In this document: positions 22,171-57,117 of the stretch, in pieces
Layout: each line of letters starts with the position of its first letter
How positions within the stretch are numbered: position 1 is the first letter of the stretch
Origin: an uncultured Gemmatimonadales bacterium
GTDB lineage: Bacteria; Gemmatimonadota; Gemmatimonadetes; Gemmatimonadales; GWC2-71-9
Direction of reading: 5' to 3'
Assembly: GCA_963831425.1 (NCBI GenBank)
Contig: CAWHQC010000015.1
Span: forward strand, 100,821-164,820
Length of the DNA stretch: 64,000 bases
The notes under the pieces: generated by a model
Databases searched by the model: none
What the model was told of the DNA's origin: nothing
Seen by the model: only the letters and a program-made list of their open reading frames with translations
Made by a program: the position numbers and the translations under genes

Positions 22171-25100
22171 GCGTCACCACCCCGAACTCCTCCTCGACCT
22201 TCCCCCGAAAGATGAACGGTCCCTGATCGAACAGCACGTGACCGCGCTCACGATAGATGTCCGGGAAGAGCACGACCTCGATGAGCCCGTCGCCATCGTC
22301 GAAGGTGGCGAACTCCATCGGCTCGTCCTTCAGCGTGTGGACCGGCTTGGCGCTGGTGAGCATCCCGGCCGCCAGCACGTGCTCGCCTACGTGCCGGTGC
22401 AGTTCCGTGCTGGGACAGAGCCGGAACCGCCGGAGGTCGTCCGCGTAGAGCCGCATCGGGTGCGCGTCGGTGGTGAAGCCGAGGGCGGCGTGCTCCTCCC
22501 GGCGGCGGCGCTCGGGGCCGTACTCCTTGAGCACGGGCACGGCGGGCGGAAGGTGGTCGAACCAGTCGCCCGGGCGATCGTCGGGTGAGCGGACGCACTC
22601 GGCGGTCGAATCCACCAGCCAGAGCATCATGGGCCGGGTCCAGTCGCCCGCGATCGAGTCCAGCGCGCCGACCTTGATGAGCGCGCGCAGGTCGGCGGGG
22701 GAGATGCCGGTGCGGGCGCGGAGGTCGGCCAGGCTGGTGAACGGGCGGAAGGATGGAAGGACGGAAGGCGGAAAGGGAGAAAGGACCCGCGGCCAGGCAC
22801 CGGCACTGTCATCCCGAGCGGAACTGTCATCCCGGGCGGAACTGTCATCCCGAGCGGAGCGAGGGATCTGGCCGGGCCGAGCTCGAACCATTCCCAGCAA
22901 GATCCCTCCGTCGCTGGCGCTCCCTCGGGATGACAGTCCCGCTCGTCGTCTTCCTCCGCCCGCTTCTCCCTCCCTCCATCCCGCGCTTCCAGCACCCGCT
23001 CGGCCCCCTCCGCCGACAGCTCCTTCACGAACTGCAGCCCGATCCGGAGCTCCCGCCCGCGGCCGGTCGTGCGGAGTTCGCTCGCGTTCACGTCGGGCGG
23101 CAGCACGGTGAGCCCCATGCGCATGGCCTCGGCGACGTAGACGAACGGGTGATAGAACCCGCCCCCGTTGGCCAGCACCGCGGCCATGAACTCGGCCGGA
23201 TGGTGCGCGCGCAGGTAGCACGCGTGCTGCGCCACCTGGATGTACGACGCCGAGTGTCCCTTGCAGAAGCTGTAGCCGGCGAACGACAGGATCATCGCCC
23301 AGACCCGCTTGGCCGTCTCGGCGTCGCGGCCGAGCGCGAGCGCGCCGGTGAAGAACTCCTCGGCGTAGCCGGCGAGCGCCCTGGCGGGTCTCTTCTTGGA
23401 GAGCGACTTCCGGAGTCCGTCGGCGGTGGCGAGCGGCATCCCGGCAAAGGCGGCGCACACGTTGACCACGTCCTCCTGGTAGACCATGACGCCGAACGTC
23501 TCGGCCAGCGTGTCGCGCAGCACGGGGTCGAGCGGCTCATAGGGCGCGCCGTGCAGCCGCTCGAGATAGAGCCGGATGAAACGGTTGGAAGCGGGGCGGA
23601 TGATGCTGGTGTTGAGTACCAGCAGCTCGAAGGTGTCGGCCCGACTCTTGGCGCAGAGCGCCCGCGAGGCGGGCGACTCGGTGTAGAACACGCCCATCGT
23701 CCGGCCGGTCCGGAAGAGCTCCTTCGTGGGCTCGTCGTCGCCGGGATCGGAGGAGGTGTAGTCGATGTGCCGGCCGGTGTGCGCGTGCACCGCCGTGATG
23801 GCGTCGCGGATGACGGCCAGCGAGCGGTTGCCGAGCAGGTCGATCTTGATCAGCCCCGTGTCTTCGGCGCCGTCCTTCTCGAACTGGATGACGGGCACGG
23901 TCAGATCCGGGTGCCCGTCGAGCGTCTTGACCGCGCGCTCGGTCGGCACGTAGTCGGTGAGCGCGGTGGGCACGATCACGACGCCGCCCGGGTGAAGCGA
24001 GAGGTGCCGCGGCACGCCCACCAGCGGCGCCGCCATCCGGGCCAGCTCCTGCCAGCTCGGCGGCAGGTCGAGCGCCTTGAAGTTGGGATGGGTGGCGAGC
24101 ATCTCCTCGAGCGGCTGCTCCTCGTACCACGGGATCCGGCGCGTCACCTCGCGGATCTCGCCGTTGGGCCGCCCGTGCACCTTGGCCACCTCCCGGAGCG
24201 CGCCGCGGAGGCGGAAGCAGTTGTGGTTGGCCACCATCGCGGCCTGCGGATGGGGGTAGTGCCGGAACACGTAGGCCAGAACGTTGTCGCGCTCGTCCCA
24301 CGGAAAGTCGAGGTCGATGTCGGGCGGGTCCGTGCGCGCCGGATTGAGGAACCGCTCGAACAGGAGCCCCGCGCCGAGCGGCTCGACGTGGGTGATGCCG
24401 AGACAGTAGCTCACGATCGAGTTGGCGACGGAGCCGCGGCCGCAGTGGGTGGGGCCGTGCTCGACGATGTCGCGCACCACCAGGAAGTAGTCGGCGAACC
24501 CCTTCATCCCGATGATCCGGAGCTCGTGCTCGAGCCGGTCGCGCGTCACCGGCGCGATGGTGCCGTAGCGCCGCTCGGCGCCGGCATAGGCGAGCGCGCG
24601 GAGCTCCTGGGTGGCGTCGTTCGCGTCGGCGAAGCGCGGCGACACCACGCGGCCCACCGGAATCCGGTACGCGCAGCGCTCGGCGATCTCGGCCGCGGCC
24701 CGCAGCGCCTCGGGGCAGTCCGGGAACTGGCGCGTGAGGTCGGCGGTGGGGCGGAGCCAGGCGTCGCGGGCAGACGGTCGGGCGGGCAGGCGGTCGGGTG
24801 GTTGGGGGGTCTCACTCTCCTCCCGACCGTCCGACCGCCTGTCCACCCGCCCGCCCGAGAGCGTGCCGTTGAGGTGGATCGCCCGGAGGAGCCGGTGGCG
24901 GCTCCAGTCTTCGGGGTGCGCCATGACGACGGCGTTGGTGACGACGGGCGGAAGGCCCATGCGGCGCGCGGCGGCGAGCACGGCGTGGCGCTTCTTGCCG
25001 GGACGGAGCTCGGCGTAGAGGTCCCGCGGCCCACTCAGGCGGAGAACGCGCTCCAGGAAGGCGGGATCCTGTGAGAGGAGGACGAGGCCGGCGCGATCGG

Positions 25101-25509
25101 CGGCGAGGGAGGCGGAAAGACGGAAAGACGGAACGACGGAAGGATGGAAAGGCGGGGCAGGTAACCCCGATCGCGGCTGATTGTCCTTCCGTCCCTCCAT
25201 CTTTCCGTCCTTCCCTCCTTCCGTCCAGTGAATCTCCGTGATCGTCCGGCAGAGCGCCGCCCACCCGCGCTCGTCCATCGCGAGGGCGACGGTCTCCTCA
25301 TCCTCGGTGACGAGGTGCGCGCCGAGGATGGGTCGCACGCCGGCAGCCTCGCAGACGCGCTGGAACTCGACGGCTCCGTAGACGCCATTGGTGTCGGTGC
25401 AGGCAAGCGTGCCGAACCCTCGCTCGGCCGCCGCGCCGGCAAGGACCTCGGGACTCGAAACACCGGTGCCGAAGGAGAAGTGGGTGTGGAGGTGCAGGTG
25501 GGTAAACAT
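22061..25509 (-). CDS. dnaE2: Error-prone DNA polymerase III alpha homologue DnaE2. It carries two in-frame hairpin-repeat insertions and a 236-nt composite repeat insertion that changes the reading frame near the C-terminus.
   Basis: The PHP start [21 protein letters not shown] and full-length alpha-subunit similarity lie in ORF 22627..25752 ([14 protein letters not shown].., [48 protein letters not shown]). After ..[19 protein letters not shown] the conserved sequence resumes as [29 protein letters not shown].. in ORF 22061..23458. Confidence 0.85.
22745..22980. mobile_element. Composite nested palindromic (MITE-like) insertion inside dnaE2.
   Basis: The outer arms are GGAAGGATGGAAGGACGGAAGGCGGAAAGGGAGAAAGG (22748..22785) and its approximate complement at 22946..22983. 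The inner element has three 18-nt tandem units CTGTCATCCCGRGCGGAA (22806..22859). The last extends to ..GCGAGGGATCT and pairs with AGATCCCTCC..CCCTCGGGATGACAG (22900..22936). Confidence 0.75.
24772..24852. repeat. 81-nt hairpin element with 8-nt periodic G-rich/C-rich arms, in frame inside dnaE2.
   Basis: AGACGGTCGGGCGGGCAGGCGGTCGGGTGGTTGG, loop, TCCCGACCGTCCGACCGCCTGTCCACCCGCCCGCCCGA. It is translated as [27 protein letters not shown] between conserved ..LNGTLSG and ARDAWLRP... Confidence 0.7.
25105..25226. repeat. About 120-nt hairpin element with 8-nt periodic purine/pyrimidine arms, in frame inside the dnaE2 PHP region.
   Basis: GGAGGCGGAAAGACGGAAAGACGGAACGACGGAAGGATGGAAAGGCGG, 28-nt loop, TCCTTCCGTCCCTCCATCTTTCCGTCCTTCCCTCCTTCCGTCC. 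It is translated as [41 protein letters not shown]. Confidence 0.7.
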
Positions 25510-25545
25510 TTGCGTGTGCGCCCACCGGGGTACGAGACGGGGGTG

Positions 25546-25564
25546 GTTCGGGTTTTCTTCGGTA
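25546..25564 (+). promoter_or_regulatory. Direct-repeat operator candidate GTTCGGGttttcTTCGGTA (11-bp period), upstream of dnaE2.
   Basis: It lies 37-55 nt upstream of the dnaE2 ATG (25509) and downstream of a TTGACG hexamer (coding strand, 25592..25587). 16 of 19 positions are identical to the site at 36904..36922. Confidence 0.5.
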
Positions 25565-25928
25565 AGGTGCTGTCGGCGGCGGCGCGCGTCAAGGAGGCGC
25601 GGAAGCCGTGGGCTTCGGACGCGCCATCCTGACCCAGCTCCGCGCTCACCTCCTGCCGAAGGCCCCGGCACTTGCCGGCATGGTGGCCGCTGGTGGATCG
25701 CGAACACGTTCACCGATTCTCCCGTGCGTTCGGTGCTTCGCTCGGTCGACATCGGCCGCGGAGGAACGCACGTGGTCAGCGGTTCGGTGTAGAAGGCGAT
25801 GCACTTCTGGCTGCCGCTGCTGGCGGCGGCGCTCTGCGCCTATCTGGGCGAGGCATCGCGAGCGATTAACGCCAGCCGGCCGGAGCACGGCACCGCATCA
25901 CGGCGGCCGATTTTTCCTCCGATGATGC

Positions 25929-42280: not shown

Positions 42281-42432
42281 GATTCACCACAGAGGCACAG
42301 AGGGCACGGAGGGTTCCCATACCGGGAGGGCACCTGGGACCCGGACAACACCAACGACTTGATGGTGGCTCCGCTCCCGGATGCTCTCCGTGTCCCGGCC
42401 CCTCCGTGCCCTCTGTGCCTCTGTAGTGAATC
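42281..42432. mobile_element. 152-bp MITE with 32-nt terminal inverted repeats (31 of 32 match), TTCACC family.
   Basis: The left arm is GATTCACCACAGAGGCACAGAGGGCACGGAGG (42281..42312). The right arm is CCTCCGTGCCCTCTGTGCCTCTGTAGTGAATC (42401..42432). It lies between the convergent stops at 42248 and 42449. Confidence 0.75.
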
Positions 42433-48068: not shown

Positions 48069-48918
48069 TGCTGCTGCTGCCGTTCGCGCCGCTGCTGGAC
48101 GAGCGATCGCGACCTACGGTGCCGTTCGAGTGGGCCTGGTCCCTGCACCCCAGCGTCCTCCTGGGCACCGGAATCCTCGGTGCCCTCTATTTTTACGGGA
48201 TCGGGCCGTGGCGCCGGCGGCGTGGACTCCCCGGGTTCCCGCCTGGAAGGTGGCGTCGTTCTGCGGGGCGCTGCTCGTGCTGCTGGGCTCGCTCAACGGG
48301 CCGGTGCACGATCTCAGCGACTACTATCTCTTCACCGCCCATATGGTGCAGCACCTGCTGCTCACCCTGGTCTTCCCCCCGCTGCTGCTCGCCGGAACGC
48401 CCGGATGGCTGCTTCAGCCGCTGCTCCGCCCGCCCGCCGTGCGGCGGCTTGCCCGGGTGCTCACCCAGCCGTTGCTGGCTGCCGTGCTGTTCAGCGCCGC
48501 CATCATCGTGTGGCATCTGCCACCGTTCTACGAGCTGATGATGCGCGACCACGACGTCCACATCCTGACGCACCTGATGTTCATGGTCACCGCCACCCTG
48601 CTCTGGTGGCCGGTCATGAGCCCGGTGCCCGAGCTGCCACGGCTCGGCTACGGCCTCGGGATGCTGTATCTCTTTCTGGTGGGGATCCCGATGCAGATCG
48701 TCGCGGCGATGATCTCGCTGGCCGGCGGGGTACTCTACCCCTGGTACAGCGCGGCCCCGCGCACGTGGGGCCTCTCGCCGCTGGACGACCAGCAGCTCGG
48801 CGGCCTGATCATGTGGGTGCCCGCGAATCTCTACATGTTCCTGGCCATCGGCGTGCTGTTCTTCGCGTGGGCGAGGGAGAGCGAGCGGGAGGACGGCGGT
48901 GAGCGGCAGGGGGTGTGA
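48065..48918 (+). CDS. ctaG: Cytochrome c oxidase assembly factor CtaG (caa3-type), one frameshift near 48230.
   Basis: The ATG overlaps the ctaF stop (ATGA). MMLLLPFAPLLDE..WAWSLHPSVLLGTGILGALYFYGIGPWRRR lies in ORF 47243..48538. VASFCGALLVLLGSLNGPVHDLSDYYLFTAHMVQHLLLTLVFPPLLLAGTP..HILTHLMFMVTATLLWWPV..LGGLIMWVPANLYM lies in ORF 48130..48918. Confidence 0.8.
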
Positions 48919-48975
48919 GGGTGAGAGGTGAAAGGTGAGAGGTGAGAGGTGAGAGGTGAGAGGTGAGAGGTGAGA
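48912..48975 (+). repeat. Tandem heptamer array (GGTGAGA)n, about 9 units.
   Basis: GGTGTGA GGGTGAGA GGTGAAA GGTGAGA x6, read directly. The ctaG stop codon lies in the first unit. Confidence 0.9.
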
Positions 48976-49056
48976 GCAGGTGGGCTGCGCTTTGTGAGCC
49001 ATGTGTGCGGCGGGGAGATTTGAGGGGACTGGCCACGGCGTGTAGCATGCGATCAC

Positions 49057-49422
49057 ATGCAGGATCACAAGTCGATCGTCGCCTGGCAGGAAGCCCATGA
49101 GGTGGCCCGAGCCGCACTGCGGACCTGCCGCACGCAGTGGAAGCCGTACGCCGCGGCGCTCTTCGGGCAGCTCCAGCGTTCCTCACTCTCGGTACAGCTC
49201 AACATCGCTGAGGGTTATGCGCTGCGATCGCCTCGACGATTTTATTACCATCTCCAAGTGGCATATGGATCGGCTGTCGAGACGGCGGAGCTCCTGGAGT
49301 TGGCCATCGAGGAAGGAGTGCTCCCGGATCCGGAAGGTCAGGCCATACTCGCGAGATGTCGCCGAACGCAGTCCCTCTTACTCGGTCTCGTCCGGCGCTA
49401 CCGTCCGGCCACGCCCCGCTGA
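49057..49422 (+). CDS. Four-helix-bundle protein (23S rRNA intervening-sequence protein family). Intact.
   Basis: MQDHKSIVAWQEAHEVARAALRTCRTQWKPYAAALFGQLQRSSLSVQLNIAEGYALRSPRRFYYHLQVAYGSAVETAELLELAIEEGVL.. matches my memory of the family pattern (W..A..L.., Q..RS..SI..NIAEG.., GS..E..). Confidence 0.75.
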   Translation: MQDHKSIVAWQEAHEVARAALRTCRTQWKPYAAALFGQLQRSSLSVQLNIAEGYALRSPRRFYYHLQVAYGSAVETAELLELAIEEGVLPDPEGQAILARCRRTQSLLLGLVRRYRPATPR

Positions 49423-49432
49423 TCCCCCCACC

Positions 49433-49505
49433 GCTCACCTCTCACCTCTCACCTCTTACCTCTCACCTCTTACCTCTTACCTCTCATCCCTCACCGCTCA
49501 CCGCC
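49433..49505 (+). repeat. Tandem heptamer array (TCTCACC/TCTTACC)n, the inverted partner of 48912..48975.
   Basis: GCTCACC TCTCACC TCTCACC TCTTACC TCTCACC TCTTACC TCTTACC TCTCATCCC TCACCGCTCACC, read directly. Confidence 0.9.
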
Positions 49506-49855
49506 ATCACCAAACAGAGCCACCCCGCCAGAAACGCCACGCCGCCGATCGGCGTGATCGCCCCGAGCCAGCGGACCCCGGACAGTGCGAGCGCGTAGAG
49601 GCTTCCGCAAAAGAGCAGGGTGCCCAGGACGAAGAGCCAGCCGGCCCAGCCGATGAGCCCGCCCGGCCAGCGGGTGCCGGCCCACGCGGCCGCGAGCAGG
49701 GCCAGCGCGTGATACATCTGATAGCGTGCGGCCGTCTCGAAGACGGCGAGGAGCTCGGGCGAGAGCCGGGTCCGGAGAGCGTGGGCGCCAAAGGCGCCGG
49801 CCGCGACGGCGATGAAGGCGGACGCGGCTCCCAGGCCGAAGAAGAGTCGGTCCAT
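49484..49855 (-). CDS. DUF423 family membrane protein.
   Basis: MDRLFFGLGAASAFIAVAAGAFGAHALRTRLSPELLAVFETAARYQMYHALALLAAAW..WLFVLGTLLFCGSLYALALSG..LGAITPIGGVAFLAGW (inner Met of ORF 49484..50092). The last codons lie in the heptamer array. Confidence 0.75.
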   Translation of the reverse strand: MDRLFFGLGAASAFIAVAAGAFGAHALRTRLSPELLAVFETAARYQMYHALALLAAAWAGTRWPGGLIGWAGWLFVLGTLLFCGSLYALALSGVRWLGAITPIGGVAFLAGWLCLVMAVSGEG

Positions 49856-49860
49856 CGCGT

Positions 49861-50565
49861 CTAGCTCCCCCGTGTCGCCCGGGAGCCGGCGGCGAGCTCG
49901 GCCGGCGTGGCGGCGCGGTCGGCCCAGCCGGCGAGCAGGCCGAGGGCCAGGATGAAGATGATGTCGGCCACGGCCACGGTCGCGACGCTCGGCGGGGGCG
50001 GCCCCAGCATGGATGCGGCGTAGGTGGCCACGAGGATCAGCACCACGACGGCCAGCCGCGCCGGCCGGACCGGATGCCGGCGCGAGCGCCACGCCACGTA
50101 CACCACGATGCCCAGTGCGAGCATGATCAGCTCCGCGGCGACGCTGAGGCCCAGATGGCGCCAGAGACCGAGCCCGAGCTTGCCGGAGTCGTTGCCCGCC
50201 AGTGGAAGGTCGGGGACATGGACCAGCAGGTCGAGCAGCCAGTGGGAGAGCACGGTAGCGCCGACCAACGCGGCGGCTTGCCAGTGGCGCGTCACGTCGC
50301 GCGTGGGCCAGGAGTAGTAGAGCGCCGCCGCCGCCAGTCCCCAGGCGACCGCGCCGACCAGACTGTGGGAGATCGGATAATCGTAGAATTGAAGCGTCAG
50401 GAGCGGGTTGCTGTCCGGAAGAAAGCGCACGTGCTCCCAGCCCAGCAGCAGAAACGCGCCCCAGAGCAGGTCGAGCAGTTGGGTCGCGATGAAGAGCGTG
50501 CCGAGCGAGATCTTGGGCTCCGCCCGCTTGAGGGCGAGCGCCGCGCCGTAGTGTCCCAGGAACAT
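49861..50565 (-). CDS. Integral membrane hypothetical protein. Intact.
   Basis: MFLGHYGAALALKRAEPKISLGTLFIATQLLDLLWGAFLLLGWEHV..YPISHSLVGAVAWGL..VLSHWLLDLLVHVPDLPL.. has several TM segments (inner Met of ORF 49861..50580). Confidence 0.5.
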   Translation of the reverse strand: MFLGHYGAALALKRAEPKISLGTLFIATQLLDLLWGAFLLLGWEHVRFLPDSNPLLTLQFYDYPISHSLVGAVAWGLAAAALYYSWPTRDVTRHWQAAALVGATVLSHWLLDLLVHVPDLPLAGNDSGKLGLGLWRHLGLSVAAELIMLALGIVVYVAWRSRRHPVRPARLAVVVLILVATYAASMLGPPPPSVATVAVADIIFILALGLLAGWADRAATPAELAAGSRATRGS

Positions 50566-56346: not shown

Positions 56347-57079
56347 GGTCTCAATGATATCCCGGTGGGGAGGGCTCGGTCTGCTGGTGATCGCGGCCGC
56401 GGCGTGCGACCGGACACCGGCGCCTCCGGCCGCGGCGCCGCCGCCCGCGGGATCGGCGGCAGCCGCGGCCGACTCGCGCGGCCGCGTGGTCTTTCTCGGC
56501 ACGAGCCTCACGGCGGGGCTGGGCCTCGATCCGGCCAAGGCATATCCCGCGCTGCTGCAGCGGAAGATCGACTCCGCCGGGCTGCCCCTCACCGTGGTCA
56601 ATGCCGGCGTGAGCGGCGAGACCTCGGCGGGTGCGCGGCGGCGCATCGATTGGCTCATGCGGGAGCCGGCGGCCGTGCTGGTGATCGAGACCGGCGCGAA
56701 CGACGCGCTTCGCGGGCTCGACGTGGACTCGATGGTAGCCAACATCCAGGCGATCATCGACCGCGCGCGGCAACAGGTGCCGCCACCGGAAATCGTGCTG
56801 ATCGGGATGCGCGCGCCGCCGAATCTCGGCGCTGCCTACGTTCGACGGTTCGACGCGGCCTACGCCACTCTGGCCCGACGGAACCGGGTAGCGCTGGTGC
56901 CGTTCCTGCTCGAGGGGGTGGCGGGGGTCGACTCGCTCAACCAGGCCGACGCCATTCACCCGACGGCAGCAGGACAGCGAAAGCTGGCGGAGACGGTGTG
57001 GCCGGAGGTGAAGCGGGCAGGCGGTCGCGCGGTCGGGCGGGCGGAAGGTCAGGCGGGCAGGCGGTCAGGGCCTTCCTGA
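56345..57079 (+). CDS. SGNH/GDSL arylesterase-lysophospholipase (TesA-like) lipoprotein. The C-terminal about 20 codons are supplied by a hairpin repeat.
   Basis: ..GLGLLVIAAAAC.. then VVFLGTSLTAGLGL..VNAGVSGETSAG..VIETGANDALRG..ADAIHPTAAGQRKLAE (ORF 56324..57079). It is divergent from the ABC pair, as in the E. coli tesA/ybbA/ybbP arrangement. Confidence 0.8.
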   Translation: MVSMISRWGGLGLLVIAAAACDRTPAPPAAAPPPAGSAAAAADSRGRVVFLGTSLTAGLGLDPAKAYPALLQRKIDSAGLPLTVVNAGVSGETSAGARRRIDWLMREPAAVLVIETGANDALRGLDVDSMVANIQAIIDRARQQVPPPEIVLIGMRAPPNLGAAYVRRFDAAYATLARRNRVALVPFLLEGVAGVDSLNQADAIHPTAAGQRKLAETVWPEVKRAGGRAVGRAEGQAGRRSGPS

Positions 57080-57117
57080 ACTTGGGTCCGACCGTCCGAC
57101 CGCCGATCGCCGGCCGC
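57013..57117. repeat. Hairpin element with 8-nt periodic G-rich arm (GCGGKCRG units) and a shorter complementary arm. Same family as 24772..24852.
   Basis: GCGGGCAGGCGGTCGCGCGGTCGGGCGGGCGGAAGGTCAGGCGGGCAGGCGGTCAGGG, loop CCTTCCTGAACTTGGG, then TCCGACCGTCCGACCGCCGATCGCCGGCCGC. It lies between the convergent lipase and aminotransferase genes. Confidence 0.7.

Follow-up and report, generated by a model that had tools for sequence, protein, structure and literature searches.

Why should an intact small gene lie between two inverted arrays of tandem heptamers at the very point where two convergent genes end, and what kind of element does such an arrangement represent? The question is raised by a locus in a 64,000-nucleotide (nt) stretch of contig CAWHQC010000015.1 (hereafter the window), from an uncultured soil Gemmatimonadales bacterium, in which a gene for a 121-aa four-helix-bundle (FHB) protein, of the family known from 23S rRNA intervening sequences (IVSs), is carried with its flanking arrays between ctaG and a gene encoding a DUF423 membrane protein. 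The genome to which the window belongs is a 3.9-Mb metagenome bin of 70% G+C that is 86% complete. Comparisons with relatives lead us to favor, at a probability of roughly 55%, the reading that the locus is an IVS-like insertable hairpin cassette of ~600 bp, that it stands as the gene-carrying form within a REPIN-like family of hairpins, and that its protein and its repeat form a matched pair.

The anatomy of the locus is that of a gene in the loop of a very long, periodic inverted repeat. The left, G-rich arm, delimited by Tandem Repeats Finder (TRF) together with an inverted-repeat search, occupies 48892-48984, with a core at 48915-48976 consisting of 9.0 copies of the unit GGTGAGA (period 7, 94% matches, score 110) and degenerate outer units that reach the last ctaG codons. 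The right, C-rich arm (49424-49508) has a core at 49429-49502 composed of 10.6 copies of TCTCACC/TCTTACC (period 7, 86% matches, score 99). The two arrays are mutual inverse complements over 66 nt at 86%, separated by 439 nt, in good agreement with the periodic inverted repeat of ~65 bp described in the first-pass annotation, and fainter complementarity (29 nt, 79%) continues outward of the core arms as far as 48892 and 49508, the total inverted repeat length being 66-93 nt. Between the arms lies the FHB gene (49057-49422, plus strand; TIGR02436/PF05635, "23S rRNA intervening sequence protein", Avd-like fold), preceded by an 80-nt spacer (48977-49056, plus strand) that may hold a promoter of its own and give rise to a near-leaderless mRNA. 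Specifically, TTGAGG, 17 nt, TAGCAT, 8 nt and ATG can be picked out by eye (about 49015-49056), a Shine-Dalgarno sequence being absent, and the spacer of the orthologous cassette in the nearest relative is arranged alike (TTGGGG-18-TACGAT-8-ATG). When 48900-49515 is folded as RNA the arms pair with one another, at -322.8 kcal/mol and z = -9.3 versus shuffles. No RNA family in Rfam matched the window, and a terminator scan of 48700-49700 returned 0 sites, a T-tract being absent.

Both neighboring genes end within the element. ctaG (48130-48918, plus strand; PF09678 at 198.6 bits), which encodes a caa3 oxidase assembly factor and is co-oriented with the FHB gene, stops with TGA at 48916-48918, while the DUF423 gene (49484-49900, minus strand; PF04241 at 108.5 bits), the listed open reading frame (ORF) of which extends to 50092 with the domain beginning near 49800, stops at 49484-49486, its stop and last 5 codons being contained in the right arm. 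The two stops, each inside an array as had been stated for this locus, are separated by 565 nt. Array units encode the final 4-7 residues of both host proteins (~7 codons of ctaG and ~5 of the DUF423 gene), and these residues differ from those in relatives where the junction is empty: ctaG ends in ..GGERQGV in the window versus ..WAKEES or ..EEERAGG at empty sites, and the DUF423 protein in ..VSGEG versus ..APRGRR. The earlier proposal that the element supplied both C-termini is thereby borne out.

The same junction in relatives is found in several states. In four genomes (G035, G024, G008 and G007) it is empty, the ctaG and DUF423 stops lying -4 to +6 nt apart, that is, overlapping or separated by up to 6 nt; these are the empty sites that the first-pass annotation had advised looking for, and they agree with its description of a discrete cassette set between convergent 3' ends. 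Cargo-less heptamer hairpins occupy the junction in G036 (57 nt, GAGCGGT units) and G017 (GGGAGCT units), and G011 has one-armed arrays. In the nearest relative, G032 (ctaG 87%), an orthologous cassette with GGTGAGC units, 6 copies on the left and ~16 on the right, encodes an FHB protein 73-74% identical to that of the window, and ctaG again stops within the array. A decaying cassette is present at locus L174 (JAICLE010000008.1, 1290-1860, ~95% DNA identity). Its ORF has lost 172 nt in one deletion and 1 nt in another (an assembly error being possible), and its arms are ~3 units shorter, the left consisting mostly of GGTAAGA and the right of the matching TCTTACC. Together, the empty, hairpin-only, filled and decaying states of the junction mark the cassette as an insertion, and comparison with L174 and G032 indicates that arm copy number, variable among these close relatives, changes by slippage, that both arms change in concert, and that the cargo decays from inside. 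As a separate observation, the gap sequence at this junction holds an unrelated minus-strand Cys-rich gene of ~200 aa in G012, G010, G013, G019, G021, G025, G029, G030 and G031 (loci L007, L009, L011, L013-L015, L019, L021 and L023), which is absent from the window and from G032.

The protein carried by the cassette is a well-defined member of its family. It scores 65.4 bits against PF05635 (cut-off 33.8) and 70.5 bits against TIGR02436 (cut-off 24), confirming the family assignment given to the ORF at first sight; these are its sole family matches, and it does not qualify as an HUH (Y1) transposase. An AlphaFold2 model made with 28 clade members as input (pLDDT 96.6) predicts helices at residues 4-26, 30-55, 59-85 and 91-114. 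The best solved matches of this model in Foldseek are XCC0516 (2gsc) and BT_0352 (2rld), each at a TM score of 0.82 and each with five chains in its PDB entry; Avd, a protein of diversity-generating retroelements (DGRs), follows at 0.73-0.76 with ~8% identity in the structural alignment. The motif S-x-Q-L-N-I-A-E-G is present at the end of helix 2, and residues S45, Q47, L48, N49, I50, A51, E52, G53 and Y54 are invariant across the 28 clade members. Over seven orthologous pairs dN/dS ranges from 0.07 to 0.14 (0.12 for the window versus G032) and, to judge from these coding sequences, the FHB protein is under purifying selection. Synonymous sites are saturated when the window gene is compared with that of G032 (dS ~1.6), and the unit word of the two cassettes differs at just 1 of 7 positions. 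The gene also has an atypically low G+C content at third codon positions (0.70, versus 0.88 in ctaG).

The layout seen in the window recurs throughout the genus. All three PF05635 genes of the window genome lie between periodic inverted arrays, with units GGTGAGA, GTCGCGG and CGGAAGGA, respectively. In a genus sample of 41 genomes with 0-9 copies of the family each, 93 FHB loci were fetched, and among the 87 that are not truncated at a contig end, 76 (87%) have periodic inverted arms of period 7-10; the same criteria were satisfied by 1 of 1500 random 360-nt windows of the window genome. The recommended count of array-flanked FHB genes thus shows the arrangement to be the norm. Neither outcome named in advance as refuting the first interpretation was seen: array copy number varies among close relatives, and FHB genes at other loci do have such arrays on both sides. 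Median values for the genus cassettes are a span of 545 nt, a 5' spacer of 82 nt, a 3' spacer of 30 nt and ~4 units detected per arm, and the G-rich arm is 5' in 69 of the 76 armed cassettes. FHB genes often lie at contig ends (e.g., G006:C421:8-325, G011:C91:146-463 and G021:C299:9-311); arrays of this kind probably break short-read assemblies, so that FHB copy numbers and calls of "FHB-less" genomes are lower bounds.

Beyond the ctaG/DUF423 junction, certain sites are used repeatedly and by different cargo. Eight sites that hold window-clade cassettes in relatives were mapped on the window genome, and five of the eight hold an array, a hairpin or other cargo, versus roughly 7% expected (p about 8e-5). 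At C28:325129 a GIY-YIG gene is flanked by GCGGTGA-family arms, the equivalent site in G017 being occupied by an FHB gene, and at C26:138447 a second GIY-YIG gene lies inside 8-mer arms where G033 has an FHB gene. The third FHB copy of the window genome (L002, C33:109438-110093), located between a HIT-family gene and rpsU, is frameshifted, its profile match being split at position 73. In seven genomes FHB genes are found at this HIT/rpsU site; they come from different subclades and run in both orientations, and each subclade brings its own typical unit (AAGGACGG, ACAGGCGG or ACGGTCGG). The gene has opposite orientations with respect to its flanks at four shared loci, an outcome to be expected from recombination between the arms. 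A bin of another phylum, labelled Candidatus Dormibacteria, was also observed to contain an FHB gene of the window clade (L140, JBHELP010000129.1; 53% identity), together with GTGAGAG arms; either the gene and its arms were transferred horizontally or the bin is contaminated.

The suggestion that unit sequences might co-vary with the linked protein is supported at several depths. On a tree of 73 FHB proteins the unit classes need 15 changes, versus a mean of 35.6 after shuffling (0 of 200 shuffles as low), and three large clades can be told apart by unit: GTGA-core 7-mers (the window clade), GTC- or GCT-type 7-mers, and 8-10-mers. The window clade itself is found at at least 10 different genus loci. 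Across the order Gemmatimonadales, 43 of 60 relatives (41-74% identity) have clear arms, all 43 being G-rich with a period of 7, and in most of them the unit has a GTGA core. Both the period and the core word of the repeat (xxGTGAx in the window clade) thus track the protein clade across loci, species and the order rather than the locus, and gene plus arms constitute one unit.

Armed genes are a minority of the hairpins in the window genome. A census found 96 periodic inverted array pairs within 1 kb, and 107 within 2.5 kb, falling largely into the families of the three FHB cassettes: ~22 with GTGA/GTAA, ~23 with GTCG and ~25 with GGA(C/A)GGAA units. Cognates of the window cassette (GGTGAGA, GGTAAGA and GCGGTGA units) number ~21 elsewhere in the genome, and the FHB gene accordingly lies between inverted copies of a repeat that is also dispersed as cargo-less doublets, the layout by which REP/REPIN systems are recognized. 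All six of the small, selfish-looking genes of the genome (three FHB, two GIY-YIG and one GxxExxY) are inside periodic hairpins. The G/purine-rich array is 5' and the C-rich array 3' in 95 of the 96 hairpins, across all unit families. Gene context was taken from our own crude gene caller, a codon-usage scorer with unreliable start sites, so that only 3' ends were used; by this measure 23 hairpins lie between convergent, 54 between tandem and 12 between divergent genes, versus length shares of 15, 61 and 24%. Convergent gene pairs thus have more hairpins between them than their share of length predicts, and divergent pairs fewer. Hairpins lie within a few bases of neighboring gene ends, and seven are inside called genes.

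Several of these hairpins are found in the window. Four had been named, near 22745, 24772, 25105 and 57013, as sharing the design of the cassette, and three of them, at 24766-24857, 25113-25226 and 57013-57117, are real periodic hairpins; the first is instead a one-armed octamer array followed by 18-mer repeats and then by a copy of a ~100-nt "GTCATCCCGAGCG..AGCGAGGGATCT" palindrome (22746-22920 in all). That the four derive from the window cassette did not hold, since their units are of 8 or 16 nt and belong to other families. The hairpin at 24766-24857 has a 16-nt unit, GCGGGCAGACGGTCGG, and that at 25113-25226 has CGGAAAGA x5.4 and GTCCTTCC x5.5 around a 27-nt loop, its unit family being the arm family of the FHB cassette on contig C33. 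Both lie within a 1041-aa open frame on the minus strand (22627-25752), which runs through them, such that the hairpins would be translated in frame. The cargo-less hairpin at 57013-57117 consists of GCGGTCAG 8-mer units and lies between convergent genes. A further hairpin, at 42288-42424, has 9-mer arms, CACAGAGGG and CCCTCTGTG, and a conserved 86-nt loop; other 9-mer hairpins were seen at C10:112107, C15:12485, C16:124481, C26:143785, C26:170905, C28:294908, C29:3198 and C31:27764. The loops of such hairpins (CACAGAGGG or CACGAAGGG arms) are 86-98 nt long and 75-91% conserved among copies, and the same arm family brackets the only GxxExxY gene of the genome (PD-(D/E)XK, PDDEXK_3; C7:38691-38981), which has an internal stop. 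The ~100-nt palindrome (CACTGTCATCCCGAGCGCAGCGAGGGATCT ... AGATCCCTCGCTGCGCTCGGGATGACAGTG) is present at 22801-22920 of the window, at C28:325129-325697 and in ~18 other loops, nested in loops of 100-180 nt of several unit families, and its full form encloses a small GIY-YIG gene.

Do the arrays, in turn, depend upon the gene? GTGA-type arrays number a median of 30 per genome where a window-clade FHB gene is present and 0 where it is not (p = 9e-6). Similarly, seven genomes contain 15-137 GGCTRTT arrays, five others contain 1-6 and the remaining 29 have none; all four genomes with an FHB cassette of matching unit are among those seven, the other three being genomes in which a cognate gene was not detected. 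Sampling of nine FHB-less genomes yielded 4 hairpins in 0.49 Mb (8 per Mb), versus 24.5 per Mb in the window genome. The idea that arrays strictly require an FHB gene in the same genome was rejected on this count, the density in FHB-less genomes being about a third of that in the window genome and not zero. The link between array and gene is real but not absolute, and it is confounded by phylogeny and by incomplete bins.

Considered together, these observations can be joined into a scheme. The cassette would have inserted between the abutting ctaG and DUF423 stops in an ancestor common to the nearest relatives, where its unit, GGTGAGA, provides a TGA to both inward-reading host genes. The FHB protein, probably a pentamer like its solved relatives, may bind its own repeat units as DNA or RNA, and through such recognition cognate arrays may be maintained or spread. 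A route that depends on the host, with a preference for gene junctions and for hairpins already present, might provide new sites, while loss of the cargo by internal deletion, or its exchange for nuclease-type cargo (GIY-YIG, PD-(D/E)XK), would leave cargo-less hairpins. Transcripts reading through from ctaG could fold the arms into a long stem, which RNase III could cut as it does in 23S rRNA IVSs.

Several findings weigh against this scheme. Comparison with empty sites shows an inverted repeat that fades into the host 3' ends, with no definable target-site duplication, and the cassette encodes no transposase or other enzyme. Binding of the repeat by the FHB protein is something that we purely infer. 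A strict sigma-70 scan found no promoter match, and a promotor belonging to the FHB gene is for this reason a weak proposition. On the sense strand, mismatches in the arms are G·U in 204 cases versus A·C in 178 (51 versus 49 in cassettes), no excess of G·U, and this flat ratio offers no indication of selection on the stem in its sense-RNA form. Arrays persist in G035, which has no cognate FHB gene, and their presence in FHB-less genomes indicates that a resident gene is not strictly needed. The genomes are metagenome bins, repeats break their assemblies, and kinship among them inflates tests made at the level of genomes. Lastly, most protein clades coincide with shared loci, so that common descent of whole cassettes could account for much of the agreement of unit with protein; the multi-locus spread of the window clade, the HIT/rpsU site and the near-identity of the word at saturated dS go beyond common descent.

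A related difficulty concerns the origin of the cargo-less forms, which the first-pass annotation had explained as miniatures of a cargo-bearing parent, an idea that is half supported. The internal ORF deletion at L174 is what such a history would look like in progress, but a BLAST comparison of the loops of cargo-less hairpins with the interiors of FHB cassettes found no remnant, a further point against the scheme, and hairpins are present in FHB-less genomes. An origin of these hairpins from FHB cassettes in the manner of miniature inverted-repeat transposable elements was rejected on the grounds that the loops lack FHB remnants and many contain the GIY-YIG-related palindrome.

The same body of evidence bears on other explanations. 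Hairpins might be autonomous, propagated by a host process, with FHB, GIY-YIG and GxxExxY genes being unrelated selfish passengers that lodge in the loops and pass from one hairpin to another of like units by homologous recombination via the arms, and with a protein that does not read the repeat. Three unrelated gene families and a ~100-nt palindrome do occupy the loops, the GIY-YIG gene at C28:325129 lies in GCGGTGA-family arms at a site used by an FHB gene in G017, and hairpins are still found in FHB-less genomes; arms of 30-90 nt, moreover, could serve as homology for gene conversion, through which units would also follow the gene. What renders passengers unlikely, in our estimation, is that the GTGA core is kept among relatives as little as 41% identical in protein and even where dS is saturated, which argues for constraint on the word itself, that hairpin families, in the absence of the matching FHB clade, are likewise absent or else three-fold less common, and that 87% of FHB genes being armed is high for an occasional passenger. 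A purely RNA-level module of IVS type would be inherited vertically rather than move as DNA, its arms serving only to form a double-stranded stem that RNase III cuts, releasing or silencing the FHB mRNA and insulating the convergent genes. Its architecture is that of ORF-bearing 23S rRNA IVSs (in Coxiella, a 28-bp stem, RNase III and heptamers upstream of the S23p ORF), and the very stable predicted stem (z = -9.3), the co-orientation of the gene with ctaG and the location of most FHB clades at shared loci are all as it would have them. We nonetheless judge it quite unlikely: a sense-strand bias of G·U over A·C is absent, the gene is flipped at four loci, one site holds different cassettes in different species, like hairpins occur in frame inside a long open frame, and nuclease genes can take the place of the FHB gene in the same arms.

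Two further accounts fare considerably worse. Were the arrays a bidirectional terminator, or chance microsatellites whose slippage-prone repeats settled in a tolerant gap by an unrelated small gene, the enrichment of hairpins between convergent genes, their depletion between divergent ones and the change of copy number by slippage would all be expected; such an account is very improbable given the lack of a T-tract or any terminator-like site in the scan, arms at 76 of 87 FHB loci versus 1 of 1500 random windows, units that track protein clades, a handedness of 95 in 96, and hairpins inside an open frame. That the protein is an Avd-type accessory of a DGR is suggested by its fold (TM 0.73-0.76 to Avd) and by a weak match of the paralogue on C6 to NF033474 (22 bits), yet the latter score is far under the cut-off of 80, the window protein has no match to NF033474, no match to reverse transcriptase (PF00078) was found anywhere in the 86%-complete genome, and the neighbors are ctaG and a DUF423 gene; we consider a DGR role hardly credible. 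The reading of the locus as an insertable cassette with a matched protein and repeat is the one that we prefer.

A wider proposal, which we advance tentatively and at less than even odds, extends this reading beyond the genus. TIGR02436 proteins would be lineage-tuned readers of 7-10-nt words and, together with GIY-YIG and PD-(D/E)XK (GxxExxY) genes, would form a hairpin-colonizing system that makes and maintains the genome-wide G-rich-first hairpins of many bacteria, re-using gene junctions and also sitting in frame inside genes, with 23S rRNA IVSs and the heptamers of Xanthomonas and cyanobacteria among its manifestations. Cyanobacterial STRR repeats are likewise dispersed tandem heptamers. 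Orthologues of XCC0516, the solved relative 2gsc, lie between inverted GGGAATC arms in Xanthomonas arboricola, X. dyei, X. hortorum and X. vasicola (L243-L246, at about 300-1200 in each locus), and periodic arms were found at 41 of 70 XCC0516 relatives from many phyla. The same heptamer, which is strongly enriched in Xanthomonas genomes, has been described, along with GGGGAYT in Nostoc, as a dispersed G-rich repeat of variable copy number, enriched between aligned and convergent genes and forming 70-75 convergent inverted pairs per Xanthomonas genome; there the heptamers were read as quadruplex formers and no associated gene was named (Rehm et al., 2015; PMC4692102). The FHB family is likewise not mentioned in the paper on the Beggiatoa TAACTGA repeat, nor was GxxExxY mentioned in the literature searched, and among the abstracts retrieved in these searches, PF05635 and TIGR02436 included, none describes a gene-plus-array layout outside rRNA.

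Were this proposal to hold, two puzzles would be answered at once, namely a very widespread family, with relatives in many phyla and two solved structures, that has no assigned function outside DGRs, and short tandem heptamers that have long been noted in bacterial genomes without explanation. The rRNA intervening sequences would then represent one landing place of a general class of element, and a set of small proteins that can be programmed to recognize words of 7-9 nt would make a useful tool. For annotation, the consequences are more immediate, in that cassettes and hairpins rewrite the C-termini of neighboring proteins, insert peptides into proteins and break metagenome assemblies.

Besides the heptamer repeats of Xanthomonas and Nostoc, four known systems invite comparison. 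In Rickettsia, palindromic elements (RPEs) are hairpin-forming repeats inserted in frame in protein genes, and they are single palindromes of 100-150 nt, without periodic units and with no known cargo-bearing form. The two window hairpins inside the open frame at 22627-25752 resemble them, a likeness that applies to the cargo-less hairpins and not to the cassette. With Avd (4dwl, 8ub7), a pentameric cofactor that binds nucleic acid, the FHB protein shares fold and superfamily, whereas the window genome lacks the reverse transcriptase, template and variable repeats of a DGR.

Resemblance is closest to the 23S rRNA IVSs of Leptospira and Coxiella, in which a PF05635/TIGR02436 protein is encoded in the loop of a 430-760-nt element with terminal inverted repeats. 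The S23p IVS of Coxiella burnetii has a 28-bp terminal stem cut by RNase III and heptamer repeats upstream of its ORF, and a mobile origin has been proposed for it (PMC4990558). The cassettes of the genus are of similar size (median 545 nt) and likewise surround an S23p-family ORF with a long stem of terminal inverted repeats. Unlike these IVSs, the window cassette lies between two protein genes rather than in an rRNA helix, its arms are long and purely periodic arrays of a kind with units of 7-10 nt, and its family includes ~100 hairpins per genome that carry no cargo. The cassette also resembles the REP/REPIN-RAYT system (PMC3116915), in which one or a few genes lie between inverted copies of a repeat found at many other places in the same genome as cargo-less doublets, each gene lineage has its own repeat family, and the repeats occupy intergenic 3' regions. 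The cassette differs from that system in that its repeats are tandem arrays of a short unit rather than a single palindrome, its dependence of array on gene is correlative only, and its gene encodes, in place of an HUH tyrosine transposase, a four-helix bundle of 120 aa that has no catalytic motif known so far.

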